Source: Octopus vulgaris (Eukaryota). Taken from it: DNA of 64,000 bases. Each line of letters starts with the position of its first letter. Position 1 is the stretch's first letter. Below the pieces are notes generated by a model. The model did no database searches. It had not been told where the DNA came from and worked only from the letters and a program-made list of their open reading frames with translations. The stretch covers positions 39,060,001 to 39,124,000 of the forward strand of contig OX597828.1 of assembly GCA_951406725.2 (NCBI GenBank). The letters are read 5' to 3'. A program made the translations under genes and the position numbers. Shown one piece after another: positions 1-57,839 of the stretch.

Positions 1-1137
1 TAATCGTTAAAATCCTCCCTTGTTTATTTATTCCATTTTTACAGTTCACCAATTAATAATACCTGTACAACAACACGAAATGTACCCACATGCCTCTTCG
101 TTTATTTCGTTGTGTTTTTAATTTCATTTGATTAAATTTGGTTTTTATTTTTTAATGGAGATCAATTTTGTGTCGATTATTTTCACGATTCTTAGTAAGA
201 TTAAAAAAAAAAGTTTTAAGCAGTAATTGGAATTAATTATATTTTTGAAATATCACGGGGTAAAAATTAAATTTTCGACTAATTTAATGCATGCGTATAG
301 CTAATTAATTAATTAGGATTGTTTAATGTGTATATCTACTGTTGGCAAGTGGACAGTAATTTTGACATCAGGATGACAGTTAAAAAGGATAAAGCTAGCT
401 TGCTACCTTATTCACACACTTTATATAGTCCCGCTTACATTTTTCTTCTTGATTTCCTTTTTCCCCTCTTCCTTATTCTTTTATGAACTTTAGTGAGTCA
501 TTGTCCCCCCTCAGGGGGTTCTCGTTGGACAAAATGGCCCCAACTATCCTTTTCCCCTCTACCACGCTTAGCTAGCTTGCTTGCCTTTTAGATTGTCTTC
601 AAGCCAAGAGAATTTATTTTCTCATTATACATATATTTAGGCTGTCTTATTAGCATTTAATTATTGATTTGTGTATTTAAATGAAGGCTAAAATAGAAAA
701 TGAATATATTTGTTTGATAACATTGCTGATGTCGTTTAGCTCCTTTCCAGCCATGACCATCTCATTTTTTAAAAATTTCAGATAGTGTATTATTAGGATA
801 ACATTATAATCCAATGTGTTTTAAAACGGTAGGGAAAGAAATCTGGCTGTTATTTCTAGCATGTTGGACAATCATATAGAGGCTCGTTGTTATAATTACC
901 GTTTCGTTGTTTCCATTATCTATAAAAAAATATTGATAATTAATTACACGTTTATAACAACTAGACAATTCTAGTGAAAAATAAAAACAAAATCTATGTT
1001 AAAACCCAACAAGCTCAGTTGGTCGACTACCTTCAGCTGGTCTAAATTAAAACGAACATTCGGTCACTGACTCCCCACCAAGGAAACCCTTCCTTTATCT
1101 CATAACCGACGCCATCTATTAAAACACATACAACAGC

Positions 1138-2083
1138 AAGCTAGCGAGGGAGCCTCAACGCGGTCGCTCGACATTCTAGAGATAGCAGTCAAATCTCCAA
1201 CTCGCACCCTCCTGTTTTAAATATAGAAAAGACGCATTAGATAATGTAGTCCCATATTATCCTTAAAAAAGATAGGATGGCCATAATTGGAATACTTTCG
1301 TCAGAGTTCAGAATGGGAAAAATGTTTTATCAGCTGTCTTCCCGCATTCTCGGCCAGTGCTGACCAACAGCAACGTATACAGTGAGGTGCTTCTAATGTA
1401 GTTTCTCAACATGCTAGAAAGAAATAGCCAAATCTCCCTTAAATCACCCCCGTCTTAAATAAAGAACATATTGGATAATGTAGTCCTACATATAATCTCT
1501 AAAACGGCAAGATGTCACGGTTGGAATGTCTGTGATCATAGATCTCGATCTGGGCTGAACAATAAACACGTACAAGGGAGCTTCCACACGATCGCTTGAC
1601 CTGTAGAAATAGCAACCAACTTACCCTAAAACGTCATTCTGTCGTCTTGACTAAGAAAAGAACACATTGGATAATACAAGTTTCGACATAGCTCTAAAAT
1701 GTCATGCGATGATGATGGTCATGGCTGGAATCGCTTTGCTCATAGATAGGTCGGTCGTATCAGAGCTGACCGGGAATTAAATAACAGGACCGCGACGACT
1801 TAATCGTTCATGTCCTTATATATATATATATATATATTTTTTTTTTTTATGACATTAAAATACTAAGATTATAATTAAGTAAACACGTGTCGAGAGTGTC
1901 ACTACGTTGTCGTTCGACCTGTTAGAAACAACAGCCAAATGTCTCAAATTACGCCCTGCAATCTTGAAACAAAAATTGGTGGGGGACATACTGGAAAATG
2001 TCCGGGCTTTACAATACCTGGGGTGAGTGTGAGAATAGATACTTTGATCAGGGTTTGTTGACCTTGAGCTAAACAACTACAAC
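1138..2083 (+). mobile_element. Four head-to-tail copies of ~200-bp retroposon family E (non-tRNA head, (CAA)n tail)
   Basis: Copies at ~1138-1310, 1380-1565, 1572-1785 and 1890-2083 share GGTCGCTCGACCTGCTAGAAATAGCAGCCAAATCTCCC..GGATAATGTAGTC..GGCTGGAATGCCTTTGATC..GGGCTAAACAAC. Other copies include ~730-890(-), 3565-3725(-), 4020-4170, 6820-6980(-), 12140-12315, 18070-18270, 18560-18640, 24125-24340(-), 29520-29715, 34730-34905(-), 39865-40015(-), 45170-45610(-), 48540-48960(-) and 57380-57585. Confidence 0.8.
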
Positions 2084-2125
2084 ATATACTTTCAAGTATA
2101 TCCGAACATTATTATTATTATTAGT

Positions 2126-2570
2126 AAAGCGGCGAGCTGGCAGAATCGTTAGCACGCCGGACAAAATGCTTAGAGGCATTTCGTCCGTCTTCATGTTCTG
2201 AGTTCAAACTCCGCCGAGATCGAGTTTGCCTTTCATCCTTTAGGATCGATAAAATGAGAACCAGTTGAGCACTGGGTCGATGTAATTGACTTATCCCTTC
2301 CCCCTAACTTACTGGCCTTGTACCAAAATCTGAAAGCAATATTATTATTGTTAAGGCGGCGAGCTGGCACAGTCGTTAGCATGCCGGGCGTAATGCTTAG
2401 CTGCATTTCGTCCGTCCTTACGGTCTGAGTTCAAATAACGCCTGTACAATTTACTTTTTATCCTGTAGGTATCGATAAAATAAGTATCAGTTGAGCACTG
2501 GGGTCGATGTAATCGACTTGTCCTCCCGCCAAAAACTTTATGTCTTGTGCCTTTAGCAGAAAGGATTATT
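2126..2570 (+). mobile_element. Two tandem family-C SINEs in (TAT)n
   Basis: Head AAGGCGGCGAGCTGGCAGAATCGTTAGC..GAGTTCAAA (A/B boxes), central GCCTTTCATCCT..GTCGATAAAAT..GTACCAG, tail merging into ATT repeats. Confidence 0.85.
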
Positions 2571-2796
2571 ACTATTATTATTATTGTCTTTTCCATTTCA
2601 ATCATTTACTTGTTTATTGATTTTGTTTTCATACAGTTTCCCTCTCTCTTCTCATTTCATATTCCCAGGCTGTTTGCTTACCAACAAGGGGGTTTACATT
2701 GCATAGCTTTCACTCTGATCTATAAGCTCCCTTCTCTTCCACGTGGATAAAATATATCCAGGAAGAATTTTTATGCCTTATTATTCTCTCTTACAG

Positions 2797-2814
2797 GAGC
2801 ACACTTGATTTGGG
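2797..2814 (+). other. Candidate 18-nt microexon in the intron upstream of USP3 exon 2
   Basis: ctctcttacag|GAGCACACTTGATTTGGG|gtaagc; length divisible by 3 and open in the phase-1 frame needed to join exon 8572. Confidence 0.3.
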
Positions 2815-5800
2815 GTAAGCTTAAATTTTAATTTGCAATGTGATCAAATATGTCACATTTTCATCTTAGGAAGCCTCTCCACCAAAGTTCCTTCCTAACC
2901 AGCTTGTGTAAGATGTCATTTCAGTGAGTGCGACTAAGAGGAAAAGTATATATTACACTTTATTAAAATCAGAATAAGATTATTAACTTGCTCTTAAAAA
3001 TAATTTTAAACGCACCAAATACTTTATTATTGCACTGCACTGTATAACTGGCTCAATTTAAAAATAAATTAGTTATACTAGGAAATTTACATTTCCATCT
3101 CCTACTTTGTATGGAGTGCAAAAATTAATCAAAAATTTCCTGGAGGTGCAAACTGTAAAAAATGTTAGGAATCATTACACTATGCGGTTGCTCGACCTGT
3201 TTAAAATAGCTACCAAATCTGTCAGAAAGCACACCCTACGTTCTTAATAACGGAATGACACACACCTTGTAAGCTGACAGAAACTTTCAGGAAGTCTGCC
3301 ATGTGTATAACTAATAAACCCTTACTGAGCTTCAAAGTTCAATTCAAATAATGAAAATATTCTAAACACACTAAGGGAATGGATGTACACCATTTGAGTG
3401 TATTTAACCATTTGTCTGTGCAATCGGGCCTTAATATCAACAATTTGTTATCATTCTTATGGTTTATCTTGGAGTAGAATGGTTTGCCTCTTGAAATTTA
3501 GTCTTTTGAGAGTTTTTGTTCATTGTTATTCTTGTTGCTTGGTTTCTAAGATAAATTGTTTGGTTTCTTCAGCTCCGAGTCAGCCCTCATTGAGTTGATC
3601 CATAATCAAAGGCATTCCAACTTATAAATACTGGACCGCAATTTACAATGTGTCTCCCCCCCACACACACATTTTTTAAACATGGAGCGTAAATGAGGGC
3701 GATTTTGGCTGCTATCTAAAAACAGTTGGAGCTTGGTTTTTGTTGCTGACTGCCGAATTTTTATTGTTCTGGCCACGATGGTGGGAAATTTGGTATCATG
3801 AACTTACTTCAAGGTAGAGGAGAGAGAATGAGTAGGAAGATCCCCTAAAACTGTCAGTTATATTATTTGGACACTGGCCAAGCTGAAATTTAATCTGGAA
3901 GAGAAATCATTAGAGAAAGATAGCTAGTATCATTTTCTTCTTTTTTTTTTTTACATATTCTTTGCAGATCTTATTTCTTAATGGATGAATTGCTTGTCTG
4001 AAATACATTTATCCTTTACGGGCCAACGAGAAAGCCTCTACATGGCCGCTAGACATGCTAGAAACAACAGCCAAATCTCATTGCTGGATAATGTTTTCCT
4101 ATACTCACTTTCAAAAGGATGAGAGAGTGATAGGTGCAATGCCTTTGATCATAAATCTGTTCAATCAATGCCAATCAATGTTCTCAATCAGTACTTCTTC
4201 ATCTTAATGTAATTCAGTGCGACTTTCACTGGATGACGTAAAAAGAGATTGTTTTAATAAAACAGAACGTAATTTTGCGCAGTAGTTTGTTCATGTTCTT
4301 AATAATATCCAATCCAGCCTCTGGCTTCTTTTAGATATTTGTATGAACTTGTGTATCTGAGTTGATTTTTTTAATGGTAATTACTAAAGGCAAGGACTTA
4401 TATCTTTTATCTTTTACTTGTTTCAGTCATTAGACTGCGGCCATGCTGGAGCACCGTCTTGAAGAATTTTAGTCGAACGAATTGATCCCAGTACTTATTT
4501 TAAAGTTTGGTACTTATTCTATCAGTGACTTTCGTCGAACCGCTAAGTTACAGGGACGTAAACAAACCAACGCCGGTTGTCAAGCGATTGTGGGTACACG
4601 CGCGCGCGTGCACTTATATATATATATATATACATACACGACGGTCTCCTTTCAGTTTCCGTCTACCAAATCCACTCACAAGGCTTTGGTCGGCCCGAAC
4701 CTATAGCAGAAGACACTTTGGCTCAGCACCAGTCATGTTTTTTTTCTGTTCATTGATCTCAATGTCCTATTCGTAACGATTTAATTAAAAATAGAAATAG
4801 TGAATCTGAGTTAAATATTTTATTGCTAAAATCAGGCCATTCTCTAAACCCCCAAATCCCAATGTGATCACACAACGCCCTTCATAGGTGCTGCTTCTGC
4901 CCATGCCAAGGAACCTAGTCTAACAAATAACATTAATCTTTTAAGAAATCCTCTATTTTAAAACTTAACTAGGCCCTGTCACATCGATATTCTGTACTCG
5001 ATTGATTTATTTATTAACAGATCAAAACTGTACTAAATCCATCAGGGTTATACGATAATACTAGAAGAAAACGAAATAATTAAACGGACTTCTTAAATTT
5101 AAGGCTCACGATTTTTAGTAATCAAGGGAAATGATGTTAAAGCTGTCTGTTTCTATGTATATTATTGTCTTGTATATCTGTTCCAAGTAAATCTGGAAAA
5201 CTATATTATTTCAGCTGAATTAATGTAGACAGATAGGGAAATGTTGATCAGTTTTTAATTGATTTGTACTGTTGAGCATTGATGAATATATAAATACCTT
5301 TGAATAAATTATTATGGGATCAGAAAAGGCATCAACTTCTAGACGGATCATTCTCCTCCATTAAGATGTATTATTCATCACTTGTATTTTTCTTTGTCTA
5401 TATCTCTTTCATTTTGTGTCTTTCTACTCATCCAGCTTAGCTTCTTACTAAGTTGGTGATTTCATTTCAATATGAATTCACTCACGCTTAAAACAAGCAC
5501 ACACACACATATTTATTAAGACGTTTTAGTTTGCAGTAGACATGTAAGACAAAATTATGGAGTTGTGCTTGTTTGGAAAGGATGATAATGATGTTCAACA
5601 CACACACAGAGTCGTCTAAGAATCCATAAAATCATTAAAAATATGCACTTGTATATTTCTCAACAGAGTGGGTATATTAATAAAAGTATGCAGTACCATA
5701 GATCCATTTCAGCCGTTCTTGCCAACCGATTTCGCACTAGGTATTAAATAACTATGGTATATCTATAATCCTGTAGACTACACGTGTGTGTGTGTACATG

Positions 5801-7845
5801 TGTACATACATGCACGCAACGTGAACCTTCTTTAGCCAACCCAGAGCGCACTAGAGGTTTCATTGGACACTTTTGGATATAAACGTATGACTTCCTCTAA
5901 TGTTTTTGAATTCTTCCACATGGCACTGTATACAACCATTTATTAGATTTGATTTGCATCGTTGATGGATTTATTCTTAGTATCATTTAATGAAGTGAAA
6001 TATAGTTGATAAAGGCATTAGATTATTTAGTTTTGTTTCTCTACGTTTCTGAGTTCAATTACCGTCAAAGTCATTAAAATAACCATCTATTTAATTATTG
6101 GGGTCAATTCAGTTAAGTGAAAATAACTGTTCCCTCATGTATTTGTGATTTTGTGTTGATATTAAAAAATAATGTATCTGGTATTAAATATACTCTTGAT
6201 CTTTAATGATCCAAGCTTAAAAATCCTTTGAAGTTCTTCCGAGTGAAAGTTTATCGCAGTGTCGTTATTTAGTCGGTCTTAAGACCATTTTTGCTGACTG
6301 GGAAGGAATGTTAATGTTGCTTTTTTTTTTTTTTTAAATCAGCTCTGGGAAGTTGAAAAGCTGAGTCGATATCTACAAAGATTGAACATCAATGAAACAC
6401 TAATCTAGATACATTATAAAATATATATTATTGAACCAACAACAGAGGTTTTTTGCGCGTTGCTTGGCCTACTAAAAAGACTAGTTGAATCTGGTAGTCA
6501 AGATATACCTTACAAATAAATTAATTAATTAAATAAAAGGGTATTGTCAAGCTGGAATGCCTTTGGTTTTACTCTGCTGGATCAAGTCCGACTTGGATAG
6601 GATAAACATTTATATTAAACTATGGACCGCCATCCCTTTACTCACGAGCGACATTTATTATTCGTGAACGATAAAGTAGATTCATACCTTTATTTTCAAA
6701 ACGTCACCATCTCGTATTATGGCATTTCGTCCGGCATTGGTGCAAAGGGCAGGCGGGGGTGGTTGTGGGGGAAACTGTTCAGATATCAAACTTCATTGTG
6801 TTGTGTGCTGTCAATATTGTTTTTACTTAATTCCATGTCAGCCCTCATCGAGCAAACCTATGATCAAAGACATTCCAACCGTGGCCATGCCACCCCCACC
6901 TCCCAAATATAGTGTATCTAATGTCCTTTTCAAAGATGGTAGGGTATATGGTTTGAGGGGTATTTAACTTTTTTTTTCTAGTGAATTATGTAGAGGTATA
7001 AAATTACCAGCAATATATTGAATTTTATCAAAGCAAAGGCATTCCTTAAATAAAAGAATCTCTTGTTTAAGACGACCGTCTTTATTTAGAAGCGTGAAAA
7101 AACATACCATGTAACAGCATTCATCTTTTTTCTAAAGGCTTGTTTTATGTATAGTTTATTATGCATCATTCGTATTGAACATGTTTCTTTCATTCTAAAT
7201 GTTGAAAAGCATCACGTTTGAAACCTGATATAATACACTAACTAGATATGCAGTGTTGATCTTGCAGGATAGACTAGCTTTGAAAGAATTTATAAGCCAG
7301 GAATAAATATAAAAACACAAAGAAAAAACCCCCAAACTCTTGCTTCTTTTTATGATTGATTATATCTCAGATTTTCAATCCAAGCTGTTTATTATACTTC
7401 CTTAACCCTATTGCCATCATTACTTGATGCCACTCGAAATCCTAGACAACCCAACAAACACTACTAAAAGTTGAAAAGCAGGTTTTATTTTATTCCACCA
7501 AACATGATTTTCCTTTTTTTTTTTTTTCATTCCAAATATACTTTATGTAGCTTTTCTCTTTCTTTCTCTTACTGGAGTGATGGTGAATGGATTTTATTTC
7601 AACAGCATTTTCATATGATGCGTCGCCTGTCAGCACTATTGGTGTTTCATTTATAAAACTAGTGAAAAGGTTTAAGATGCTTTAATATTCTTTTATACTT
7701 CAGAGCTGGGTTGGTGTGATATTAGTGTTTAGTTCAATCAAGTTTTATAAAATATTGAACCACTGTCTTCAATGCTCTTTTTGTTAGTGATTTTAAGGAA
7801 TAGAACTCTATGACATTATATATTGAAGTCTTCTGGTGATTTTGC

Positions 7846-7876
<31 letters not shown>

Positions 7877-8571
7877 GTGTTATTTAGTTGGTTTTCCTGC
7901 TGTGTAGAAACTACTGTTGTTATTTGGAAATGTTCCAGTGTTTTTTCGGCTTCAATTGAATGTTTTATGTCTGAAACCGTAGCTTATCCCAATATTTCCT
8001 TAATAACTTGTATGTTTCCTTTCATAATAGCCTAGCCTTCTCGTCTTGTTCTGAGCAGAGAAATCGGCATTGTTTTTAAGCCGTGTTAGGTTGAGATTCT
8101 TGAGGCGAACGAAGGATTATTAAATTTTTTTTCTTCTTTCTCTTCCAATATCCATTAATAATGTACGTCACAAAGCTTCCGTTCTCTAATTTTTTAAAAA
8201 AACATTTTATGCCGAATTAACAAATTATAATTATCTTATATGCTTGAACAAGTAAAATGCTTGGAGCAAGAGACATCTTAAAGCAGTGAGTCGAGACAAA
8301 CGACGGCCTGGTTTCTCACTTCACTTTCACTGTTAATTTTCTTGGGAAAAGCATAAATGCCACAAATTCTAATTTCCCTTCCTCTCTAAATTACATCATG
8401 TTTCGTATTTAATATGTAAGGTCATTATGCCGTTATTGTTATGACTACTAGTGACGTAGCTGCTTTCAGTTCTCTGGTTTTGTTTCCTCCTCTCTGCAAT
8501 AAATGTATTTAACTTCGTTTCAATGTTTGTTATATCTCCAACTTAACATTTTTTGTTTATTTTGCTTTCAG

Positions 8572-8632
8572 TGTGTAAAACAGAAAAAAGTCCCTGGATT
8601 TGTTTATGTTGTGGAGTGGTAAATTGCGGCAG
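8572..8632 (+). CDS. USP3: Coding exon (61 nt, phase 1 to 2) of a USP3-like ubiquitin-specific protease, ZnF-UBP domain; equivalent to vertebrate exon 2
   Basis: Polypyrimidine tract ..ttttgctttcag acceptor and AG|gtaata donor. Translates (V)CKTEKSPWICLCCGVVNCG(R), matching the vertebrate USP3 segment VCRSNKSPWVCLTCSSVHCGR as recalled. Confidence 0.9.
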
Positions 8633-9100
8633 GTAATATTCTCTTATTTCACATCTTTTAAATTATTTTTGAGCAGTTGCGGTTCTAATTTTACAAGTCT
8701 TTATACTCAATTAAATCAAAATCTATATCATAACATCGGCGGTGGAACTGATTTATGGTTATGATTTTTTTTCTTTTTTTACAATATTATATTTTGCTGT
8801 AAGGTTACTGTAGCTGTCTTACATAGTCTGTACTTGGTTTCCAAGATGGATTTCTTTTGAGTTAATCATCAATACATAGGCGTTTTGTATACGGGCTTCT
8901 ACAGCTTCCACCTACCAAAATCATCTGCAAGGCATTGGGAGGCTAAAGTAGAAAACACTTGTCGCAAGGTGACAGGCAATGAGTCTAAACTCAAAAGCAC
9001 GTAACTGGAAAGCGAGCTTCTGAATTACACAACCGTGTCCATATTTTCAGTTCAAAACGGATTATCAGAAATGTTGATTTTAGTAAATGCATTTCCTATA

Positions 9101-9464
9101 TCTCTCTATATATAAACGGCAAAATGTCTGCGTGTGTGTCCTTTATACAAATCCACAATTTTTCAGTTAGAGGGCTCGCACTTTCTATGATCATTCAAAA
9201 CCGTCCAAGGGTGGTCGTGCACATCTTTACATTTCCCCAGTCACCCCGCAAAGCCATTAAAAACTCAATAGAAGTGATTTTTTGGTGAATTTTCTATCCA
9301 AAACCCAATCAAAATGCCCGAAACTTGATACACCAATTGAATGCCAGCTAGCTGTATGTGATTGGTCGGAGATTTGGACAGTACTCGCGTGTATGTGCGC
9401 ACGCACGCAGCTGTATATGCATGCACTAGCACTATGACCCAGCAACGCCGGGTCATAGTGCTAG
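9101..9464 (+). mobile_element. Non-autonomous Helitron
   Basis: Starts TC(TCTCTATATATAAA) after an A and ends CTAG before a T, with a subterminal GC-rich hairpin GACCCAGCAACGCCGGGTC; no TSD. Confidence 0.8.
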
Positions 9465-9469
9465 TATTA

Positions 9470-9665
9470 TATATTCGCCATGATAGATCGCTAGCTGCTA
9501 TACTTTTTTCTATTTTCTCTCCCTGTTTATTTTTGTGTTCCTTTCTTCGAAAAGCGTAGGCTCGAAACGTAAAAGACTCACTTCCCGAGCGTTAAACTAA
9601 TACATCAGTTTGTTGTTTACACACCCGTCTTTTGGGGTTTTTTTTTGTAAATTTTCACTATATAT
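9470..9665 (+). mobile_element. Penelope-like terminal-repeat fragment; second copy 58705-58890
   Basis: The two copies are homologous and share GAAGAGC(G/A)TAGGCTCGAAAC..AAAGAC-like sequence; both are embedded in TA runs. Confidence 0.5.
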
Positions 9666-10255
9666 ATGCGCACATATATATAGTGTTGGTGTCACGTATA
9701 AGCACTGAGTAAAGTGACGTTAGGAAGTGCATCTAGCCGTAGAAACCAAACCAAAACAGACTGTGAGACCTGGTGCGGCTCCTGGCCTTGCCGGCCCCTG
9801 TCAAGCTGTCCAATTCATGGAAAACGGGCGTTAAATGATAATGATGATGATACACACCTGCACGCACACTTATAATGGTGCTGAGTATATTGGAAATGAT
9901 CAGATAACCCAACGGTCCTCAACTTTTTCACTTCAAACCAGTTACATGCAACACAGTTTTTTCCACGGACAGTGGAATCATGCGCATGAACAAAATACAA
10001 TAATGTGCATAATATATAATTTAATTATTACGTATATAATACATAAAACATTCTGCAGGTAGCGATAATCAATAAAATAGGAATAAAATTTAAAAGATCA
10101 TTCCTCCTCTGCGGCCCGGTTATTAGGGACCCCTGGGATAATCTACCTACTTGCCCCTCCCACGCACCTGTCTCCCGAAATAACTCGCACCTCACACCAA
10201 TCATTTCTCTCGGCCTTTCTCCTTCATCAGTCACGCGTTACTCCTCGATATCTCG

Positions 10256-10488
10256 GGTACTAGTAGCGTAGACTGGACCCGGTTTGCGCAGACGCGCTAG
10301 CCAGACGTAGGCAGTCGATCCTACGAGCTGACTGGCGCATGCACGATATATACTTGTATCGATATATACGATTTATACTTGTATATATCGTGCATGTGCG
10401 CCAGTCAGCTCGTAGGATCGACTGCCTACGTCTGGCTAGGACGGACGCGCGTGTGCGCAAACCGGGTCCAGTCTACGCTACTAGTACC
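10256..10488. mobile_element. Palindromic CpG-rich MITE (Merlin- or MULE-like)
   Basis: Nearly the whole element is an inverted repeat (GGTACTAGTAGCGTAGACTGGACCCGGTTTGCGCA.. / ..TGCGCAAACCGGGTCCAGTCTACGCTACTAGTACC). 9-bp TSD GATATCTCG (10247-10255) / GACATCTCG (10489-10497); GG termini. Confidence 0.85.
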
Positions 10489-10936
10489 GACATCTCGTTC
10501 CCTGCGATCACCTCCTTTCTGTAACATTTGAACGTGTTCACTTCCCCTTGTCGTTACCTTACTTTATTCGTTACCACTATAAAGTTGACCGGTTAAGGCT
10601 GCGAGCTGCGCGTTCGTTACTGCATCAGACAAATTGCGTAGCAGCATTTCTTTCAACTCTTTGTGTTCTGAGTTTAAATGCCGCCGAGATCGGCTTTGCC
10701 TTTCATTTTTACAGCTTCGATAAAATAAGAAACAGTTAAGTACTGGGTTCAAATGTCCTCAACTAGCTCCTTTCGCCAAAATTTCAGCCCTTGTGCCTAA
10801 TGTAGGAAAATGTCTGTCGGTGTTTAACCCACGCAGGCAGCATTCGACCATGCCACTTTCGCGTATGATCGTAATGTTTAGTTAACACTTATTTTCATAT
10901 CTTGAAATCTTTAGAAAAGACGGAACTAGAAACTCT

Positions 10937-11561
10937 GGATCTTTTCCTTTTGAATGGCAGATGTCAACACAATTTCTAGTTAACTAAACACTTTTAAACT
11001 TCGTATACTGGTAGAATGTGTTTATAAAACATCATTTTCTCTTGGTTTTATTGAGAAAATTCTATAGTTTGTAAGATATTTCGTCTGAAAATCCGAGCAT
11101 TTCGGCAATTTTAACCAATCGATTACCTCCATTCAACTAAAATCATTTGCTGCGTCTAAAACTGAGACAACATCCTGTAACTAACCCTAAACCTCCCCCT
11201 AACCCTAATTTTATTTTCTTAATTGTTAAATTAATTTAATTCCATTGCTTTAGTTTTTTTTTACACGCGTAACAATTAAATTAATTTAACAATTAAGAAA
11301 AAAAAAAATTAGGGTTGGGGGGAGGTTTAGGGTTAGTGATAGGATGTTGTCTCAGTTTTAGACGCAGCAAATGATTTTAGCTCAAAAGAGAGCATAGGAT
11401 TGGTTAAAATTCGAAAAATTAAACTACGTTAAACAAACAAATTACAATTTTCTCAAAGCCAAGAGAAAAAAATGTTTTATTTTGACACATTCTACCAGTA
11501 TTCGAAGTTTTAAAGTGTTTAGTTAATTAGAAATTGTCTGCCGTTCAAAAAGAAAAGATCC
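10937..11561. mobile_element. Foldback MITE with ~300-bp arms (Merlin-like)
   Basis: Termini GGATCTTTTCCTTTTGAATGGCAGA / TCTGCCGTTCAAAAAGAAAAGATCC; perfect 8-bp TSD GAAACTCT (10929-10936, 11562-11569); internal TAACCCTAA/TTAGGGTT motifs. Confidence 0.88.
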
Positions 11562-12613
11562 GAAACTCTTTCATGCCAGAGGTTTCCAGAGTGTTTTTAT
11601 TGTTTCAAAATCACCGTTTTAACACTACGAAAAATTCACAACCTAAACTCACTATCTATGACGGGATATGATTAGTAAATTAATAAATTAACACATTTGT
11701 GTTTATTAATCTAAATGTGACGACGGGTGGATTATACAATCACTGTTGCATCATACTAACAAAATACCTTTGTAGTATTTGTTTACATCCCTTTGCCTTT
11801 CATAAGTACTGGGTCAACTGCATCCAATAAATGAATATTAATATTAGTTCTAGCAGTTAATTACAATTTACAAGACCGAGTTCAAAACTTATTTTATCGA
11901 TTGCGGAAGATTTGAACTCAAAACATAAAAATATGTAATGAAATGCCACTTTGTCTGACGTTCGACCGATTTGCCATTTTGCAACATTGATTTCTTTTTA
12001 AATAGTTAGAAGACTTTAGATTACAAGGGTTGGAAAAAGAACTGCGTCAGAGAATGGAAATGGCTGCTACCGGAAGCAGTCAATTTACTAAAATCTTGAA
12101 TACGGGTGTTTTACTATTAATAACGACAGCTCAGACTTACGAACCAACGAAACATCCTCCAAGTAATCGCTCGATCAGGCAGAAATAAATAATATTTAAA
12201 TCACACTCTGCCGTCTTAAAGAAGGATACAATGCAACTTTGTATTTAAAAAACAGAACAGATTGTTACGCCTCATAAATCTGCTGAGTCAAGATTGGCCT
12301 GAGGCCAATAACAACTCGGATCACGGCATTGCTTGCAAAACCGGTAACAAATTGTATTGAAAATTTCAATGTCCCAAACAGATTATTTAATGTATAATCT
12401 AGTTTAGAAATATATAAATTTTCATTTAACTTGATGCGCTAAAATTGTACTTAAACAGGATTATGAGCTTTTTAAAATAAATAATGCAAGAGTGATTTTA
12501 TAGTAGTATTTAATAGTTGGTGTGTGATATGAAGGTCATCAAGAAATTATTTCAGTGAAGTTAGATATGCCTGAAAATATTAAATCTACCGATATCAAAA
12601 CAAATGTAGCAGT

Positions 12614-12667
<54 letters not shown>

Positions 12668-14055
12668 CAAAAGGAATTTTCCTCATGCTTGTGTATGGTT
12701 TTGGCTTTTGTATTTCTATTATTCGCGTTAAATATTCGAGAGAAAAACATTTGTGCAACACACTTAGGAAATGTGAATTTATGAAAACATTATTTAGTAA
12801 ACGATTGCATTGTTTTTATTATGTGAAAGACCGAAAGATTCACAAAGATTTTTATGGCTTACTAGATCATTTTCTTGATATACGTTTAAAGATTAAAAAA
12901 AGAAGTTTTCTTAAATATGATATTCTTGGGTAAATATCTGGGAAAAGACAGTGCAGGAGAAATGGAATTGTCTGAAACTGCCCTTCTTTTACAAGGAAGG
13001 CTATAAATAATAAATTCTTGTTCAGTCGTGCCTGAATGAGCAAGTAAACCTATTACCAAAGGCTTTCCAACCAAGTTGGTTTCTTTCTTTTTTTAATATC
13101 TAAAATTACATTTTCCAATTTGGATAATTTGGTTGGTATTTCTTGCATGTCGAACGACCGCATTGACGCTCATTTCGTCAGCTCGCACTATGTCCAAAAA
13201 AAATAAGAACACGCCAAAAGACTTCCCGGTACATGAAATTTGTGGCCATGTGCCTAAGCTGGAAATTAAATAAACACATATCGTTTTCTGTTTCATACTT
13301 CTTTCTGTTGGTTATAATTATTCCTAAAATTACTTCCAGTGAGAAACATGTAAACATGGTGATTTTCATTAAAAGATTTTTATTTTGTTTCGTTTAGCTA
13401 CGTTTTTAACTGCTTCAAAAACACAAGTAATATTTAATCGAAAGAACTTCTGTTTGGTCGCTCGTAATAACAGCTAACTCTTCCTCAACATCAAATGTCT
13501 TTGATTCCCAAAAGCTAAAAAAAATAATGGTTGATCAAAGTAGGAACAGCTCCGTCATTGACCTGTTCGGTTAAGGCTGACTTGGAGCTAAATAAATATA
13601 CTGAGTTTTATTGATCGTTTTTTTTTAATGTCGATAGCATTACTAATTGGAATTAATTTTTGTTTTTGATTTGCATTTAGTTGAATTATTTACATTCAAT
13701 AATTATTTCATGCAGGTTCGTTTTTTTCTTCGGCTTATATAATTGAAAATATTATGAGAAATCGATTTTAATATATGAACGGTGATATAGGTATTCATTT
13801 TATTGAAAAATAGCAGACGAAATCACTCCCGGTAGATTTTTTTAACCCTTAACACTCTTACGCAATTTTCTGGCTTTGTTCTCGAGACGTCAGATTCTGT
13901 TGCAAGCCATATCTTTCTTGAGAGTGTCAAGATGTATATTTTGATCGATTTATTATATACCAAACGGAATATGTTCAGTTTCAAATAGCTTTTTTTCTGC
14001 TTTGATTTATATTGGAGCGGATTTGTTGCTTTTAAGATTATACTGTGAGCCTAGA

Positions 14056-14098
<43 letters not shown>

Positions 14099-14868
14099 TA
14101 CACTACGAGTCATCTGGGAAAGAACATGTAAAGGAAAATTTTATATGCACACACTCAAAACATGAAATAGAGAGGGGAACGGCGTAATTCGAGAACAGCG
14201 GTAATGGGGATTGCGAAAAACCGACGTGGCTCTTTCGAATTACCGAAACGGATATGTGATTGCCTCATAAGTATAAAAAAAAATCATTCATCTTTCCCTA
14301 AGCTAATTTTTTCCTTTAAAAATGGTGTTCGAATTTTCATGTTTTGAACATCATAGGTTCTGATTTTAAAGAAAAATTGTTTTACCTCCCTCCTTTTACT
14401 GATGAGTAAACAGATCATTTTTAATTTCTAAGGCTTAAATAAATTCGGGATGTAGTTCACAAAAATTATATTTAGTGATATAAACGTGTTTTTTTGTCTG
14501 GTAATAAATCCGACACTTTAATTGAAAAAAAAATTTTTTTTTAAGGTGAAGTGTTATATTTATTGTTAGCAGTGCAATGATAGAGAATGGCCAATAAATA
14601 ATAAATTAAAATATTTTTTTTAACAATCGGAATTTCCGATGGTCTAAAACAGAAATGGGAAAATAGTTTTTCTAAAAAAAAAGTCAGAAATAGATAAGGC
14701 ATTGATTTGCCCATTTTGAAACATGTCGAAGTTTAGAAACAAACTAGTTCGAACCCAATCCGGAACTACGTACACGTTAAAATATTGTAAATATACTCTA
14801 ATTATGAAGTTAGTAATCCTAAAATCATAACCATACGAAAAGCCTTTTAGACATACCCCCCCCCCCCA

Positions 14869-14962
14869 ACTTTGTTTCCTCATAACTTTCAGTAAAATGG
14901 ATTTTTTATGGAAGATTCTACAAATACTTTTCAGATTATGTACATTATGATTACATCATAAT

Positions 14963-14995
<33 letters not shown>

Positions 14996-15223
14996 ATGTA
15001 TTGGGGCGCGTACACATACATACTAGCATGCATCACATAAAAGACTTGAAATTTTGAAAACAGTTATGAGATGCTTATCAGTTTGTATGTGTGCACGCCC
15101 ACCAATCATTTTTTTTTCACTTAAATTCTTAAATAATCGTTACCTACACCGCTTAAAAGGTATTTATAGGAAATTTTCATAAAAAAACATATCCATTTTT
15201 TGAAAGTCATGAGGAAACAAAGT
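14869..15223. mobile_element. Inner inverted arms of an old foldback DNA element; outer ends unresolved
   Basis: ~65-bp imperfect inverted repeat 14869-14933 vs 15152-15223 (ACTTTGTTTCCTCATAACTTTCAG.. / ..GAAAGTCATGAGGAAACAAAGT), sharing the CATAACTTT..AAAATGGAT motif with the 16044 element. Confidence 0.55.
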
Positions 15224-16043
15224 CGAGTGAAGATACACTTGTAGGTACGCCAGCTTTTGTTTGCTTAATTTTTGAGATATTTTCATCGGTGTCGAACAAA
15301 ATATACACCTACCTCATACTGACGTTACTATGTATAATTATTTCCCTTTATATATATATATATATACTCTTTTACTTGTTTCAGTCATTTGACTGCGGCC
15401 ATGCTGGAGCACCGCCTTTAGTCGAGCAAATCGACCCCGGGACTTATTCTTTCGGTCACTTTTGCCGAACCGCTATATATATTTTTTTAATAATTGACAA
15501 ACACCCTCCTTAATTAGATTTTCGTTACTTTTAGTCGACAAATTTACTAAATTGAACCAAATTGTATTAAGACAAAACTGAAATTAAAATAAATGTCACA
15601 TTTGTTATTGAGTGTACGAAAAGGATTTCTCATTCTGCATCGATTGCTATCGAAATTCCTTACGATGGCTTTCATATACAGCAATAGCTGTTATCTTTTG
15701 AAATCTGTATGAACATCGTAATTCTCACCGGTGGTGGTTTGTTTACGTCCCCGTAGCTTAGCGATACAGCAAAAGAGCCCGATAGAATAAGTACGAGAAT
15801 TAAAAAAAAAAAAAGTATCGGGGTCAGTTCAGGCAAAACCCCTTAAAAGTAGTGCTCCAGTATGGTCGCAATCCAGTGACTGAAACGAGATAGATTTCAT
15901 CAAAGGGAAATAAATGTAACACATTATAAACACACCTATGCGAGGGAAGTAATTATTTCATTTTACGCGAACATTTCTTTTAAGTCATCAAATTATTAAA
16001 AGATGCTTTTATTTTATTTGAATTTTTTTAAAGAATATTTTTA

Positions 16044-16984
16044 GTTAATGTTTACTTTAGCACCCGGCCAACAAAACAAAAAGACAAGTGTAACAGGTGT
16101 AAAAAAAAATGTATTAAACGAATATGAAAAAAATTTGCGCCCACGAGCCGGGCGGAGGGTGGAGAGGACTTTCGGAAAATTCACAAGATGTGTTTTTTTT
16201 CCCTCATAACTTTTAGGAAAATGGATATCTTTTAATGAAATTTTATATAAATACCTTTTAGACGGCATATATTGCGATTATAAACAAATTCGTGGGGGAT
16301 AATTTTTTCCGAGGGGGTGAGGAGAGGACTTTCGAAGAGAAAAAAATTCATAAATTATTTTTTTGCTTGTAATGGAAGTAAGTTTGAAAAAAAAGTTTTA
16401 GATTCATTTATTTTTCGTTTCAATTGTAGAAAAAGATTTTTAAAAAAGATCCCATGTGTCGCGGTGAGAGAAACAAATTCATAAATACTGTGTTGAATAC
16501 GGATGGCTTCACTGTGGAAAAAAGTTAAGGACGATTTAGCTATTGTTTTTAGCACATATCCACCGTTGGGATCTTTTTTGAAACTTTTTTTTGTTACTCA
16601 AACGTAAAATGAATAAATCTAAATTTCAAAAAAATTTTTTTTTTCCAGTACACTCAAGCAAAAAAACAAACAAACAATTTATGGTTTTCTTTTTCTTCGA
16701 AAGTCCTCTCCCGTTCCCTCCAGGAAAAGTTTTCCCCACAAATTTCTTTGTAATAGTAATCTATGCCGTTTGAAAGATATGTATATAAAATTTCATTAAA
16801 AGATATCCATTTTCTTAAAAAGTTATGAGGGAAAATATCGGATCTTGTGAAATTTCCGAAAGTCCTCTCCCCACCTCCGATTCGTTGGCGCATATTTTTG
16901 TTTTCATATTCGTTTAATACACATTATTTTTTTTTTACCTATTTTACTTTTTTTTTCTTTTGATAGCCAGGTGTAAACATTAAC
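16044..16984. mobile_element. Large foldback MITE (~940 bp, ~410-bp imperfect arms)
   Basis: Termini GTTAATGTTTAC / GTAAACATTAAC; arms align throughout (e.g. GGAGAGGACTTTCG twice vs CGAAAGTCCTCTCC twice). TSD is unresolved in T-runs. Confidence 0.8.
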
Positions 16985-17044
16985 CATTTTTTAAAATAAA
17001 CTTTGCATATTTGCGGTAACTTTTGGCTTAATTAAATTTTTTAG

Positions 17045-17080
<36 letters not shown>

Positions 17081-17218
17081 CAGCGGTAGGACAGGTTAGT
17101 GGTGGATATTAAAATAGCCGAGGGGATAAGATATTCGGTGGTTCCCGTTAACTTTAGGGTTTGAAATAGATTTTCTTTTTCCTTCAAAAAAAAGTAAACA
17201 CTCAGATTCGTGTTTTTT

Positions 17219-17228
17219 GCGCATGCGC
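17219..17228. promoter_or_regulatory. Perfect NRF1/Ewg-type palindrome GCGCATGCGC
   Basis: Exact consensus motif near the downstream edge of the CpG-retaining domain; function unproven. Confidence 0.3.
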
Positions 17229-17515
17229 GTTAGCACATGCAGTAATCTTTAAATAGTACAGTGCATGATACGTAGTATTTTAGTATTTCGTATAGTGTTT
17301 ACGGTTGAAAAGCTGTAGTTGTGATAAAGTTTCTTTGTGCACGAGGGAAAATTTAGGGGTTCAAACCAAACTAGGGAAAAATTGAATTGTTTCAGACCGT
17401 AACGTACGAGATACCCGATATTGGATATCGGGTATCCATAGATCCATAGATGGAGTGATAATCCATTGCAGGTGTTTATTGTGTTTCTGCATTGGTTAAC
17501 CGCTTTGGTAAACTG

Positions 17516-17596
17516 AGGTAAATAATACGCACACCACCCGTTTTCGGTGTAATTAAAATCTTAACCCTAAACACTGGGTGTGCATATTCTTTACCT
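17516..17596. mobile_element. Short inverted-repeat element (mini-MITE remnant)
   Basis: AGGTAAATAATACGCACACC vs GGTGTGCATATTCTTTACCT with internal TAACCCTAA; no clean TSD. Confidence 0.45.
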
Positions 17597-18714
17597 TTGC
17601 CTTTTGGTGTATGGATAATTTACCTTGTTTTGTTTAGACCCTAATTAACCCTAATTGTATACATCTATGATTAATGGCATTCCAGCCTTGCCCATCCCGT
17701 CTTTATGGTTACCTAGGACGATATCGTCCAATGTGTTCTTCCTTTCTTAAAATGTTATGGTGTGGTTTTAGTAACTTTAAGCTGCTATTTCCAGCAGGTC
17801 TGTGCTACTCGGTGGTTAACTCGATCGTTTGTCTCCGAGTTTTCCAATTTTATTTTGGCTCGGAACCCTATTTTACGGACAACTACCACCCTAATTTTGA
17901 GAAGACATTAAATGAATAAAAAATTATTTTAGAATTTATTCTTGAAAAGGAAATTATTCTGAAAATAAATGTTCTTATTTAGATTAAAATCTTAGAATTT
18001 CATTATGTTACATGAATGGTAACTTAGGATTTTTATTGATCGAACACCAACGTGATTTTACAAATTTATAAACGAACCAATGACGGGCTCTACATGGGCT
18101 CTCAAAGGTTTTATAGATAGCGGTCACATATCTCTCAAACTTCACATAACTGTTTCTAAAAAGGAGCAAGACACCTTGAATAATTCAGTCTGAGGTAAAC
18201 TGTCTGAACCCCCACCCCAACCTCTCTAATGTCGTTGATCATTGGTCTTCTTGATCTGAGTCTAAACAACATCAATGTTATAACCACCACATAAAAAAAA
18301 AATGATCAATTAGTTGGTTAGATATTTAACCATTTGACTATCTATAAAGAAGTGGAATTGGACCTGTGTGTGTGTTTTATTAATTATTGGTGTAATGACT
18401 CTCCCAAGACACAAACAATATTTGTTTCAACACAAATTCACATCAAGAATCTTGCAAACCAAATTCAAAAACCAAGAATGATGTATATAGTCATGCAGGA
18501 ATGCCTTCAATCTTAGGATTGTTCAATCAAAGTTTAGTTGGCCTAAAAAACTATTTTCAGAGAACCTCTATGTGGTCGCCTGACCTGCTAGAAATAGTTG
18601 TCAAATACCTTCAAGTCACCCTATAAAGTCTTTGAAATAAATAGGTGGGGCACAATGTAATTGTATCATAAAAAAACAATAACAATCGGCCACTCCTACT
18701 TCACTTAGTTCCAG

Positions 18715-22939: not shown

Positions 22940-25900
22940 ACTTAGATGGCCAGTAAATCACATACTGGAGGTAGAGGTATCTTAATAAACGACCGTCCAC
23001 TTTTCCTCACCAGGAATTGAGATATCTTAGACACTACATCATATTAAATGATCTACATGGCTATGTGATAAGAAGCTTGCTTCCCAACTACATGGTTCCA
23101 GGTTCAATCTTACTGCATGGCACCTTGAGCAAATGTCTTCTACTATAGCCTTGGGCTGACCAAAGCCTTGTGAGTGGATTTGGTAGATGGAAACTGGAAG
23201 AAGCCCATTGTATATTTATGTGTGGTTGTGGATAGGTATCTTTGTGTCTGTGTCTCCCACCACTTGACAACTGGTGCTGGTGTGCTTATGTCCCTGTAAC
23301 TTAGCAGTTCGGCAAAAGAGACCAATAAAATAAGCACCAGGCTCAAAAAAAAAAAAATCCTGGAGTCAGTTCATTTGAGTAAAACTTTTCAAGGTGGTGC
23401 CCCAGTATGGCCACTGACAAATGACTGAAACCAGTAAAAGGTAAACAGTGTTTAGTTTTTGTTCCTCTATGTCTCATGATCAAATTCTGCTGTAGCTAAC
23501 TTCATTTTATCCCTGGTCAATGTAGCAAATACCTGTTATGTGTTTAGGGTCAATTATATTGCACCGTAGAGATTATGGACATTGAGAGTAATCAGTGTAC
23601 TTTAGTACTTTGATTTCCAGCATAGGTTCAATACCACAGATATTTGGGCAGTGGGTAAAATCAATTATGCCAACCCTAGTCCTTCACTGCTTCTTATTTT
23701 GTCAACTATATAGTAGGATTTGAACTCAGAGCACAAACGGATGTAACAAAAGCATTTATATTTTAGCACGTTTGAACAAACTCTTTGTGTGTGTTTCTTC
23801 CAAGATAAATTTAAGTCTTATATAAAATTTTTTTGTCTTTTGTCAGAAATGTTTAATTACAATTTGATGTAATTCCTTTATTATGTTTATTAGGTGTTGA
23901 AGCCCATCCTGCAACAACAGCCCAAGGTTGTTTCCAATGGCTGCTGTTGAATTTAATCACACTTTCATTTATAGAGTGATAGTGGAAGGAAGGGAAATAA
24001 AACCAACAAAAATAGAAACCAAAGCCTCATTGACTGCATTTATTTTTCCACATAGTTACTAATGTAGTTAATAGTCAAGATAGTTGCAGTTTGGATTTCC
24101 TTATGCTCTATCTAATTCTATTGATTGTTTAGTACCAGGTCAGCCTGATAAGCAGATCTGTGATTAAAATCTAGCTATGGCCAGACATTCTTTCTAAGAC
24201 TGTAGCCTTCCTTTTTTGGTAGATAATGGGATTTGACTGCTATTTCTAGCAGGTTAAGTGATGACATGAAGGCTTCACTTGTTAGTTTGTTTGTCTATTG
24301 GTTGTTTAGTACCAGGTCAGCCTGATAAAGCAGGCTTATGTCTAGAGGTTCTCATCTCTCACTCTGAAATATCTTTTTTGGTTTGGAAAATTTTTTTTGA
24401 AATAACCCTACAATTACCTCTGTAGACTTGGGTGTGTGTATGTCACATGGGGTGTCAGGAATGAAGGCTCTTGTTGCCAGGAATGTGGCATAAGCAAATT
24501 TAAAGACATCTTCACAACTATTACTGATTAAGATGATGATTTGTGACTTAAGAACCAAGTACACAAATTTTCTAGGAAAAGAGCTCTGTGCTTGATTGGT
24601 CCTTATTGACCCATCAACACATTTCCACCGTCTCTTTTGTAAATTGAACAGCAAAGCCAGTTTCAAGTGTTTTAGAAATGGTTATTTTAATTAAATTCAT
24701 ATCCTAAAAACATGAGTTCATATTTCTTGTTCCAATGTCTGTGTGTAGCTAGAAGAATACTATCTGTGATAGACACTAATGTACCACGGATATGTCTCAC
24801 TAGTGCTGGCAAGGATATGTCTGTCTCTATCTACGAAATGTCCCTGATTGACAGCTGATAGACATAACCTTGCTTTATGAATTGTCATTCTTTTAATTTT
24901 TACCAAAATGTGAAGTGTGATTGGATTTGTTTGATACTTAGAGGAATCCAACTAGACACCCAGCTATTATCTTTGTAAATAATTTTTCAATTTTTCTCGT
25001 GACAAAGTGTCATAACAACAGAGAAAAGTGTGTGTTTTCTTTAAAATGAACATCAGAAATAAGTTTTTTTCGTGTCTTTCTTTCAGATTAAAGTCAAAAC
25101 TTAATTGCCATTATTTAAGATACTAATTTAATTATCTCTTGCAACAAGCTACATTGCGTCTGTTTGAACTTACGAGTTGTTGATAGAAATGACAGACTTG
25201 TTGAAATTAAACTTCTGAAAATAGTAACTAAATAATGTTTAACTTGTTCATGGAATCTATTTAAGAGTTTTTTTTTATTTTTGTTTTTTTTTTTTCTCAT
25301 TTCCATATAGTAGGATTAGTAGAACATCAGTCAAATGCTTTTTGGCTTTTGATTCTGTCCATTGACATTCTAAGCTCAGATCCTACTGACTCAGTTTTGC
25401 CTTTTGTCCCAGGGACAATAAAATAAGTACCAGTGTGTATGTATTAGGGATTGATCTATATTCAACTATACTCTTGTAGTCAGTACTTCAGCATGGGCTC
25501 TGTGCAATAACCGGAAAGAGTAAAAAAAATATCAAAACATCTCACCAGGTTTATTTATTTATTTTTTTTGTGGTTTAAAAATATTCTACAATCTTATTGA
25601 TGACTTATAAAATAACTTCTAATAGCAATGAGTGAAGGCACGTGGCTTAGTGGTTATAGCAGAAGACACTTGCCCAAGATGCCACGCAGTGGGACTGAAC
25701 CCAGAACCATGTGGTTGGTTAGCAAGCTACTTACCACACAGCCACTCCTGTGCCTTGTAACTAAAATTTGCAATGCTCTAATTTTCAAATGATTTTGCCA
25801 ATGTACATGATCATAAGGTCATAAGTTCAGTTCCTGGAAGCATCTTGTGTCCTTGAGCAAGACACTTTATTTCATACTGCTTCAGTCCACTCAGCTGGCA

Positions 25901-30588: not shown

Positions 30589-31894
30589 CAGGGTGCAATG
30601 GGTAAATTGTTGCGAATTTATATTTTTAATTTTGTGAATACTCATTGTTTGTTTTTGATTTTGTCGACTACACAGTATAGTAGGGTCAGTTGGGCACTGT
30701 CTGTGAGAAAAACAGCACCATGATGCAATTTGCTTTGCCTCTAATTTGGAAACGACATGCTGTACTGCTTGGTATTCATCCCAGAAGCTCCAGTACAAAC
30801 ACTTTAGAATGTTTGGGTGTCAAATCTGAGGACAGTGCAAAGGATTCACAAAGAGTTGGAGAAGTCTAATGGTGACTACAAAGGTACAGCAGCTTGGAAA
30901 ACTCACTCTGATTGTTCTGATAAGAAAAGAACTCCTGAATTTGTTGGTGAGATCCAGGCCATAATTGACAACGATCTCGCCAAGTCAATCAGGTCCATCA
31001 CCAGGGACATAGGAGTGTCTGAGTTTCTTATCAAGCAGGTAGTGCATGAAGACATTTGATATTTCTCATACAAGGTGAGAAAGGGCCAATTTTTATCCCA
31101 AGCCATCAAAAACAAGAGGAAAGACCATGCCACAAAACTTTTGAACAAACTCAAGCATCCCCTCCAACCAAACATGCTTTGGTTTTTCTCAGATGAGAAA
31201 AGTTTCTGCCAGGATTAGATAGTGAACACACAGAACAACTGTTGGCTTGCTGTGTCTCTAAAACATGTACCAAGAGTAATAAAAATCAAACATCCAGTCA
31301 ACATCATGGTGTTTGGAGTGATCACTAGTGATGATGACATTATACCTCCATTCATCTTCCCACATGACCCCAGACTCAACATGGAGGCCTACATCAGGTA
31401 TCTGGAGGAGGTAGTGCTACCCTGGTTCAAGAGGGTGGCTGCTGGAAGGCCCTACGTCTAGCAACAGGACTCTGCACCATGTCACACAAGCAGGAGAACC
31501 CAATCATGGCTGTCAGATAATTTCTGTGACCACATCCGCCCTAACATCTGGCCACCTAATTCCCCAAACCGCAGCCCCATTTGATTATGGTGTGTGGGGT
31601 GCAGTTGAGTGAGAGGCCAACAAAACTCCTTGTAACACCAAAGACGAACTGAAGGCAAGGATTATTGCACTATTCACCAACATAAACAAGGAGACTGTCC
31701 AGAAGAGTGGCAGGAGATTCGGAAGTTGTCTAGAGACCGTGATTGAAGCCAATGGCGATTTTATTGAATAAACTTACTCTTTTGTATTTCAAGATATTTT
31801 TATGTGATTTTGGTAAATATATCTGCTAAAATGAGATGTTAGTGTTATTTTCATTTTTGCATAATTTAGACAACAGTTTATTCACTGCACCCTG
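30589..31894 (+). mobile_element. Full-length decayed Tc1/mariner element, DD37D (maT-type)
   Basis: TA target duplications; imperfect TIRs CAGGGTGCAATGGGTAAATTGTTG / CAACAGTTTATTCACTGCACCCTG; 1306 bp long with internal transposase remnants. Confidence 0.9.
30817..31770 (+). pseudogene. DD37D transposase pseudogene with stops and frameshifts
   Basis: Motifs WFFSDEK, HPVNIMVFGVITSD, QQDSAPCHTS and WPPNSP..(L)DY. There are 37 residues between the second and third Asp once a 1-nt frameshift near 31580 is corrected; in-frame TAG codons are present. Confidence 0.88.
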
Positions 31895-56917: not shown

Positions 56918-57839
56918 TGTGTGTGTGTTGTCCATGTGTTTATGGATGAATATATCTACAATGTGAAAATGTGTGTGTATGTATATATGCATATGTGTAA
57001 TGGCTAAAGTTTTTTTAATAAAAAAAAAAGGATTAGAATAGATTGCAGTTATTTTCTTTCTTCTTTTTATATATAGTTATTTTGATAAGAATGAAGGACC
57101 TTTCTCTATACTTTACTTTTTGCCTAAAATTTCCATAATTCATATAAAGTTTGATTGAATTTATTTCTATAGGATGTATTTTTTTTGTGATTTCAAAACA
57201 CAATAGTCTCCAATCCATCTCACATGCACTTTACATTAAGGAAACATTAAATAAATATTTCCTTGTCTCATGATGACTTATTAAGCTGGAGCCCATCTCT
57301 AGTTTTTGTGGTTGTTTGAAGCAATTTGCAGAGTTTATTCCCAGATAGGAAACTAGGAAGGCTAGAAAAGTCAACTTGGGGACATCTTTGTAGTCACTTA
57401 GCCACCTAGAAATAACACCCAACCTTCCTTTAAATCACAACTATCATTATAAATAAGACACATATTGGATAATATGGTCAAGATATATTATGTCTGAAGA
57501 AAATATAGAATGGATGGTTGTGGCTGGAATACCTTTGCTCATAAGTCTGTTTGTTCAAGGCTGACTCAGAGCAAACTACAACAGTAACTAGGGAAGCTAT
57601 GTCAGGTTAAATTTCCAATTTGAAGAATCCTTATTTGTTAGTTATATAAAATGCTGCAAACATATTTAAGTGACTTAATTAGGAAGAAAAACAACTATAA
57701 AATAGAATATAAGAACACAACCCTGTCTACTGGGACATCATTATATAAACTCTGTAAATTTACAACTCATCTATTAGTAGTCATGGTTATGGTTATTTTC
57801 TCCAAGTCTGTTTATGTATTAATGCATCCGAGGCAGAGC

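Follow-up and report, generated by a model that had tools for sequence, protein, structure and literature searches.

The 64,000-nucleotide stretch of Octopus vulgaris DNA analysed here (the window) carries, near its start, a short repeat (family E) that a sequence-only reading had described as an abundant retroposon of about 25 copies, headed by an HDV-type self-cleaving ribozyme and mobilised by an RTE-type LINE. The questions raised by this locus are where the element begins, whether its 5' end could fold and act as a ribozyme, and which LINE machinery copied it.

Abundance and structure of family E

Family E is a real, ancient and very abundant short retroposon. Iterated profile searches recovered 26 heads in the window, one of them weak, and a 207-position full-length model gave 33 matches there, in keeping with the earlier estimate; profile searching of 1.18 Mb of fetched sequence gave 286 matches, of which 191 start within model positions 1-20, and none in a reversed control. 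Column counts of 134 copies agree with the consensus previously drawn by eye. Forty 10-kb samples taken at fixed genome positions held 49 matches amounting to 1.7% of the sampled bases, which scales to approximately 343,000 copies genome-wide (bootstrap 182,000-525,000), the genome size used for this scaling and for the motif counts below being 2.8 Gb. The density in the window is about four times that of the sample set. The family is clumped, with 20 of the 40 samples (L036-L055, L176-L195) empty and four containing 5-8 copies.

A copy is about 210 nt long and ends in a short stem-loop followed by the (CAA)n tail already reported. The intron setting assumed in the sequence-only reading gained no support, none of 40 ORFs tested having a Pfam match, and no strand bias was seen either in the window (14 plus, 19 minus) or among the neighbours (29 and 33). 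The target-duplication score of 44 full-length copies is 4.55, against a mean of 3.73 and a maximum of 4.21 in 200 permutations, and there is a tandem bias, with 9 of 93 copies directly behind a same-strand tail and one behind an opposite-strand end.

The reported copy occupies 1137-1375 on the plus strand, with a profile match to 1310 and then a decayed tail up to the next copy, its 3' limit being approximate. Two more head-to-tail copies follow at 1376-1781 (plus strand; profile matches 1385-1559 and 1573-1781), another lies at 1891-2074 (plus strand), and an opposite-strand copy is found at 743-885 (minus strand). Further copies include one with 8 of 9 core pairs kept (4020-4174, plus strand), a partial copy cited in the sequence-only reading (18559-18662, plus strand), a copy with the intact P4 hairpin that had been noted at 24237-24252 (24127-24285, minus strand), a head-to-tail pair (45180-45613, minus strand) of which 45416-45613 is the top-scoring copy of the window, and a full-length copy with a 14-nt target-site duplication containing 2 differences (57369-57573, plus strand).

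Other features of the window are a fall in CpG per 2 kb near 18,000, from 32-85 (1-18000) to mostly 10-40 (18000-64000), which suggests a methylation or gene-body boundary; a long imperfect inverted repeat of approximately 215 nt at 11151-11366, inside a larger repeat (10937-11561), which draws miRNA-model matches and is possibly MITE-like; and an ORF fragment (31219-31458) with a resemblance to Tc1/mariner-type transposases and no Pfam match at E 0.01.

The 5' boundary

Among 111 copies that reach the 5' end, the composition at position +1 is C46 T37 A20 G8 (binomial p 3e-6), the column pattern of a decaying CpG, and that at position -1 is A41 T38 G18 C14, equal to background. The element therefore starts with a C, at window position 1137, one base before the G that had been taken as its first nucleotide. 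The boundary coincides with the first base of P1, a C that pairs with the G closing that helix.

Upstream of the head, composition is at background and nothing tRNA- or 5S-like was found. The window has no tRNA gene, and no tRNA or 5S family of Rfam appears among the 150 of 188 window matches listed. The best A-box has 2 mismatches, and the best B-box has 1 mismatch and lies near the 3' end, in agreement with the earlier statement that Pol III boxes are lacking. In a tRNA- or 5S-headed SINE the 5' part derives from such an RNA and contains the A and B boxes; family E has no Pol III small-RNA head and has instead a sharp, LINE-type 5' end.

Predicted fold of the head

For the first 65 nt of family E an HDV-like ribozyme fold is predicted, and it starts exactly at the element boundary. 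In the majority head, P1 would comprise five Watson-Crick pairs with a C.C at the top, six positions that fall short of the canonical 7 pairs; it is followed by a 9-nt spacer with the P2 strand at its end, by P3 (G.U, C-G, C-G) with a 7-nt L3 whose G is kept, by a P1.1 of one U-A pair (TA in 84 of 130 copies), and by a 6-bp P4 capped by a GAAA loop, a J4/2 that reads C-A-A-A, and P2. The order P1, P2, P3, P1.1, P4, J4/2 is the one first proposed, while the G formerly assigned to P1.1 is the base that pairs with C1.

A descriptor of the HDV-like double pseudoknot, with tolerances from the R2 literature, fits the majority head once, from nucleotide 1. Among dinucleotide shuffles it fits none of 100,000, nor any of 20,000 when the L3 sequence is left free, and 911 kb searched on both strands gave one chance match. 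The shuffle figures overstate the surprise because this descriptor, like the looser one used below, was written after the consensus had been seen; the coincidence of boundary and P1 is unaffected, because it was found from the flanks alone. Ribozymes of L1Tc/ingi, too, are described as starting at C1 and as having a P1.1 of one pair (PMC4035085, PMC3185411). The range tolerated by R2 ribozymes includes a 6-position P1 with a top mismatch and an imperfect P2, and the same source links a P1 C-C mismatch to near-inactivity in another HDV-like RNA (PMC3774820).

Several results weigh on the other side. P2 has more than one register, as had been suspected, and an alternative non-HDV arrangement with a 7-bp P2 and a 2-bp P3 is just as stable, with a nested energy of -18.8 against -18.3 kcal/mol. 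No match to an HDV-family model of Rfam was found among the 150 of 188 window matches listed or among 57 matches on the four best loci, and RF02682 gave one sub-threshold, unrelated match from 62 scored candidates. Nor does covariation among family E copies rise above permutation. The outer P3 pairs from which conserved pairing had been read are present as stated (G.T at 1152/1164, G-C at 4034/4046, A-T in the copy at 18561); the series as a whole follows neutral decay, with the pair formed in 101 of 129 copies against a permuted 104.4 +- 2.2. Double changes do distinguish family E from LINE family B (below) in P1.1 and P2, a comparison of two lineages only.

The reported copy is itself a poor representative, with damage in P1, P1.1, P4 and P2. 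Its decayed head, placed by column counts, boundary analysis and predicted fold, spans 1137-1201 on the plus strand, with the P1 5' strand at 1137-1142 (six positions, partner 1165-1170, positions 2 and 6 unpaired), the P2 5' strand at 1146-1151 (partner 1196-1201, partly mutated), P3 and L3 at 1152-1164 (1152-1154 with 1162-1164, loop 1155-1161), the P1 3' strand followed by the A of the majority P1.1 pair, broken in this copy, at 1165-1171, and a damaged P4 hairpin at 1173-1188. J4/2 (C-A-A-A) lies at 1190-1193, and the spacing in common with family B points to the C at 1190 as the candidate catalytic cytosine. Tandem arrays of head pieces occur at L010:740-1700 and L149:6560-7000, and in the unit of the former one additional A makes P2 perfect, the outer P3 pair being A-U.

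Age and decay

Outside CpG, copies differ from the column majority by a median of 25% (n=208). A young subfamily was considered and rejected: the closest of the 208 copies is 12% diverged, three exact motifs have 15, 80 and 0 matches in 2.8 Gb, and none of 4,899 column pairs survives correction as a sign of subfamily linkage. A contig of another organism covers window positions 300-1938, from which it differs by 60 substitutions and 67 gap letters; the four whole copies located there therefore predate the split. Family E is extinct.

Since insertion, copies have been under no selection, fold included. Pair retention equals permutation for P1, P3, P4 and P2 (for P4, 989 of 1,303 against 991 +- 6), P1.1 retention is 144 of 181 against a permuted 140.6 +- 2.1, and the candidate catalytic C has survived no better than other C positions (67%, neutral 65 +- 6%). 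The looser descriptor, which has three chance matches in 2.35 Mb of strand sequence, fits one of 196 heads tested, that of the natural copy L002 at about 204,886,067 on the minus strand of G000:C1, which is not a random draw because it was picked up as a top similarity match. Under simulated neutral decay 35 of 60,000 heads still fit, corresponding to about 200 genome-wide.

LINE families with the same tail

Among 150 reverse transcriptase (RT) candidates scored of 56,077, the best-scoring loci are CR1 elements, which have ATT tails, and RTE elements, whose tails are of GA/GATA type; a second RTE family terminates in GAT repeats. Neither of these two RTE families, the ones with ends read, shares its 3' end with family E, the tails of RTE loci L139, L140 and L160 lying outside this comparison. 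A search for RNase H gave eight loci, seven of them non-LTR elements, and six read through to (CAA)n tails. These represent three families (A, B and C), all of which carry RNase H; the (CAA)n-tailed LINEs found here are Ingi-like and do not support the RTE partner proposed earlier.

The longest copy of family B, L242, encodes a 2A motif, three PHD fingers, RT and RNase H, and its best homolog carries endonuclease domains. It is a near full-length Ingi-like LINE with an HDV-like 5' end (L242:2808-7480, G000:C10 ~3,419,800-3,424,480), whose single ORF is inferred because the copy is frameshifted. Clades with 2A motifs other than Ingi are not known to carry RNase H. Ingi is among six clades in which 2A has been found (PMC3708506), and RNase H sets it apart from Vingi (PMC13708176); with 2A near its start, RT and RNase H, family B has the features that these sources give for Ingi, and may be called Ingi-like by domain content rather than by a tree with named Ingi elements. 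A head-like stretch approximately 100 nt upstream of the true start of L242 scored 0.7 bits with nhmmer (shuffle p 0.02) and was discarded. A scan for the 2A motif gave six matches. Two are from family B, one is a family A 5' end interrupted by an inversion, one is a 2A fragment on its own, and two are due to chance. The isolated motif (L305:1501-1523) has a hydrophobic lead-in and no LINE ORF downstream. Three Ingi-like 5' ends (L268, L269, L308) are inverted relative to their bodies, as twin priming predicts. The loci examined did not yield the 5' ends of families A and C.

The last seven bases and the tail of family B are identical to those of family E. At the 5' end, four family B copies are predicted to have P3 pairs A-U, C-G and C-G, a 7-nt L3, a C-G P1.1, C-G-A-A in J4/2 and a 6-bp P2, and the looser descriptor fits three of the four and 0 of 30,000 shuffles. 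The two heads have in common the 9-nt spacer, the 7-nt L3 and the J4/2-to-P2 spacing. They differ in P1.1 (U-A in E, C-G in B), in P1 and P4, which have different sequences and are paired in both, in three P2 pairs that differ on both sides, and in the outer P3 pair (wobble in E, A-U in B); P1 of family E is one base shorter on both strands. Likeness of head sequence is weak, with p 0.007-0.12 over the four copies, and the downstream parts show no significant likeness.

Family B was rejected as the parent of family E, since their bodies do not align. An autonomous LINE with both ends of family E was sought; the closest approach is the match of the last seven bases and tail to family B, and no LINE with more in common was encountered. 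No parent LINE was seen upstream of the 30 exact-motif tail matches examined out of 80, upstream of 28 tail-only family E matches, or among 50 RT loci fetched. Metagenome contigs contain 0 matches to a 21-nt head motif, and the fold is on the plus strand in 0 of 80 metagenomic LINE loci, most of them without 5' ends. Candidate likenesses of the family E body to the 3' end of family C and to the 5' UTR of family B, and a translated match to Ingi ORFs, were discarded as not significant.

Family B also has an internally deleted, bipartite derivative (seven loci, L265-L267 and L270-L273; 225-292 nt), cut just before the 2A motif and younger than family E. Its best copy has a C1-G pair and a 7-bp P1, and in all five copies with the region present the candidate catalytic C is replaced by A. 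This derivative shows two things: the route from LINE to bipartite element is available in this genome, and the candidate catalytic C is dispensable for the spread of such elements. One copy (L271) is located directly within a family E tail.

Origin and mobilisation

The account that best explains these observations is an extinct, Ingi-derived short retroposon whose head is predicted to cut before nucleotide 1; taken whole, it has an even chance of being right. Its parts differ in strength: an Ingi-type origin is held with good confidence, copying by an Ingi-clade partner, not RTE, is likely, and self-cleavage of the master copy is only slightly favoured. Family E would be an internally deleted Ingi-clade LINE. 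RNA of the master would have come either from an internal promoter or from Pol II reading through from host genes or from a copy upstream, and the ribozyme would have trimmed it to C1. An Ingi-type protein may then have bound the 3' end of the RNA and used target-primed reverse transcription to place it in new sites, frequently CAA-type repeats, the tails of earlier family E copies among them. Of the original proposal, there survives a non-tRNA retroposon of the target-primed type with an HDV-like 5' fold at its boundary; G1, the G of P1.1, covariation among copies and the RTE partner are not supported.

Possible, if doubtful, is that the origin was of Ingi type and the master head already a crippled ribozyme, with an internal promoter for Pol II, like Pr77 of L1Tc, defining the 5' end, or with the fold serving only to shield the RNA end. 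The short P1 with its C.C, the U-A P1.1 and the ambiguous P2 speak for such a history, the family B derivative multiplied after losing the candidate catalytic C, and the L1Tc hallmark is promoter and ribozyme both (PMC3383444). Against this, family E keeps the C at the catalytic position, the L3 G and every helix, and R2 ribozymes with such deviations exist (PMC3774820). Relative to family B, moreover, P1 was shortened on both strands together and P1.1 was changed on both sides, which is counted as unlikely to result from random damage.

Mobilisation of an HDV-like head by RTE or another LINE clade, as in the sequence-only reading, is improbable. RTE elements do carry 5' ribozymes and yield bipartite derivatives (PMC5786205), and the search for partners scored a small part of the RT candidates, with three RTE loci outside the tail comparison. 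The RTE and CR1 tails that were read are of other types, however, every (CAA)n-tailed LINE family found carries RNase H, and a C1 start is the ingi pattern (PMC4035085). An ordinary SINE with a head of other origin and a chance resemblance to HDV, to which the lack of covariation and of Rfam matches and the post hoc descriptor would be congenial, is very improbable given that no shuffle fits either descriptor, that the boundary coincides with P1, that this 5' architecture recurs in an independent LINE of the genome, and that covariation is not expected of dead copies.

Relation to known elements

Ribozyme-headed LINEs and their bipartite derivatives, Ingi included, are established (PMC5786205, PMC4035085, PMC3383444, PMC3185411, PMC3774820, PMC3708506, PMC13708176, PMC4758252, PMC6765202). 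Family E is of a known kind, that of NARTc/RIME/SIDER and R2-SIDE; what is new is the host, the far larger scale and the fold variant. Like the trypanosomatid L1Tc/ingi derivatives NARTc/RIME/SIDER, which carry the Pr77 ribozyme, it is short and non-coding, has a C1 that opens P1, a single-pair P1.1, GGT as the P3 3' strand and tandem copies, and would have had an Ingi-clade partner; it differs in its animal host, its abundance, a P1 of 6 rather than 7 positions, a (CAA)n rather than poly-A tail, and the putative status of its ribozyme. With the R2 ribozyme and R2-SIDE it has in common the HDV-like 5' fold, its 6-position P1 with top mismatch and its imperfect P2 being within the R2 consensus (PMC3774820); it belongs to another LINE clade, is not rDNA-specific, and encodes the whole of P1. 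The bipartite RTE/Vingi elements (RTE-N, Bov-A; Kojima 2018) likewise have no small-RNA head, LINE-type 5' and 3' ends and a microsatellite tail, whereas the tail of family E is of the type of the Ingi-like LINEs of its genome, and its LINE-derived halves are not demonstrated, the parent not having been found. Within that genome, family B and its derivative match family E in head-element spacing, last seven bases and tail; family B is younger and low-copy, with a 7-position P1, a C-G P1.1 and a different body. The CPEB3 ribozyme, a single conserved locus that starts with G, has a 7-nt L3, one P1.1 pair and C-N-A-A in J4/2. Family E shares these three features, as a neutrally decaying repeat that starts with C.

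In the literature as searched, Repbase and Dfam not included, no paper was found describing such a family in a cephalopod, and family E or animal Ingi ribozymes may already be recorded. If the master did not cleave, family E is a well-defined fossil repeat with its origin explained. In either case one genome offers a comparison set consisting of the LINE B head as carried by L269 or L264, the B derivative without the catalytic C as in L266, the family E majority head and copy L002. It is rather unlikely, though conceivable, that a ribozyme in place of a Pol III promoter took a short retroposon to the scale of a SINE (~340,000 copies, 1.7% of sampled DNA), and that on the order of 200 copies may to this day be able to fold and to cleave host transcripts, as raw material for CPEB3-like domestication. 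If the master cleaved, L1Tc/ingi-type C1 ribozymes would extend to an animal Ingi lineage, with a natural variant of the fold (6-position P1, U-A P1.1). Ribozyme-released short LINE derivatives are otherwise known from trypanosomes and rDNA, where their copy number is modest; if the master of family E cleaved itself, such derivatives can dominate a large animal genome without Pol III.
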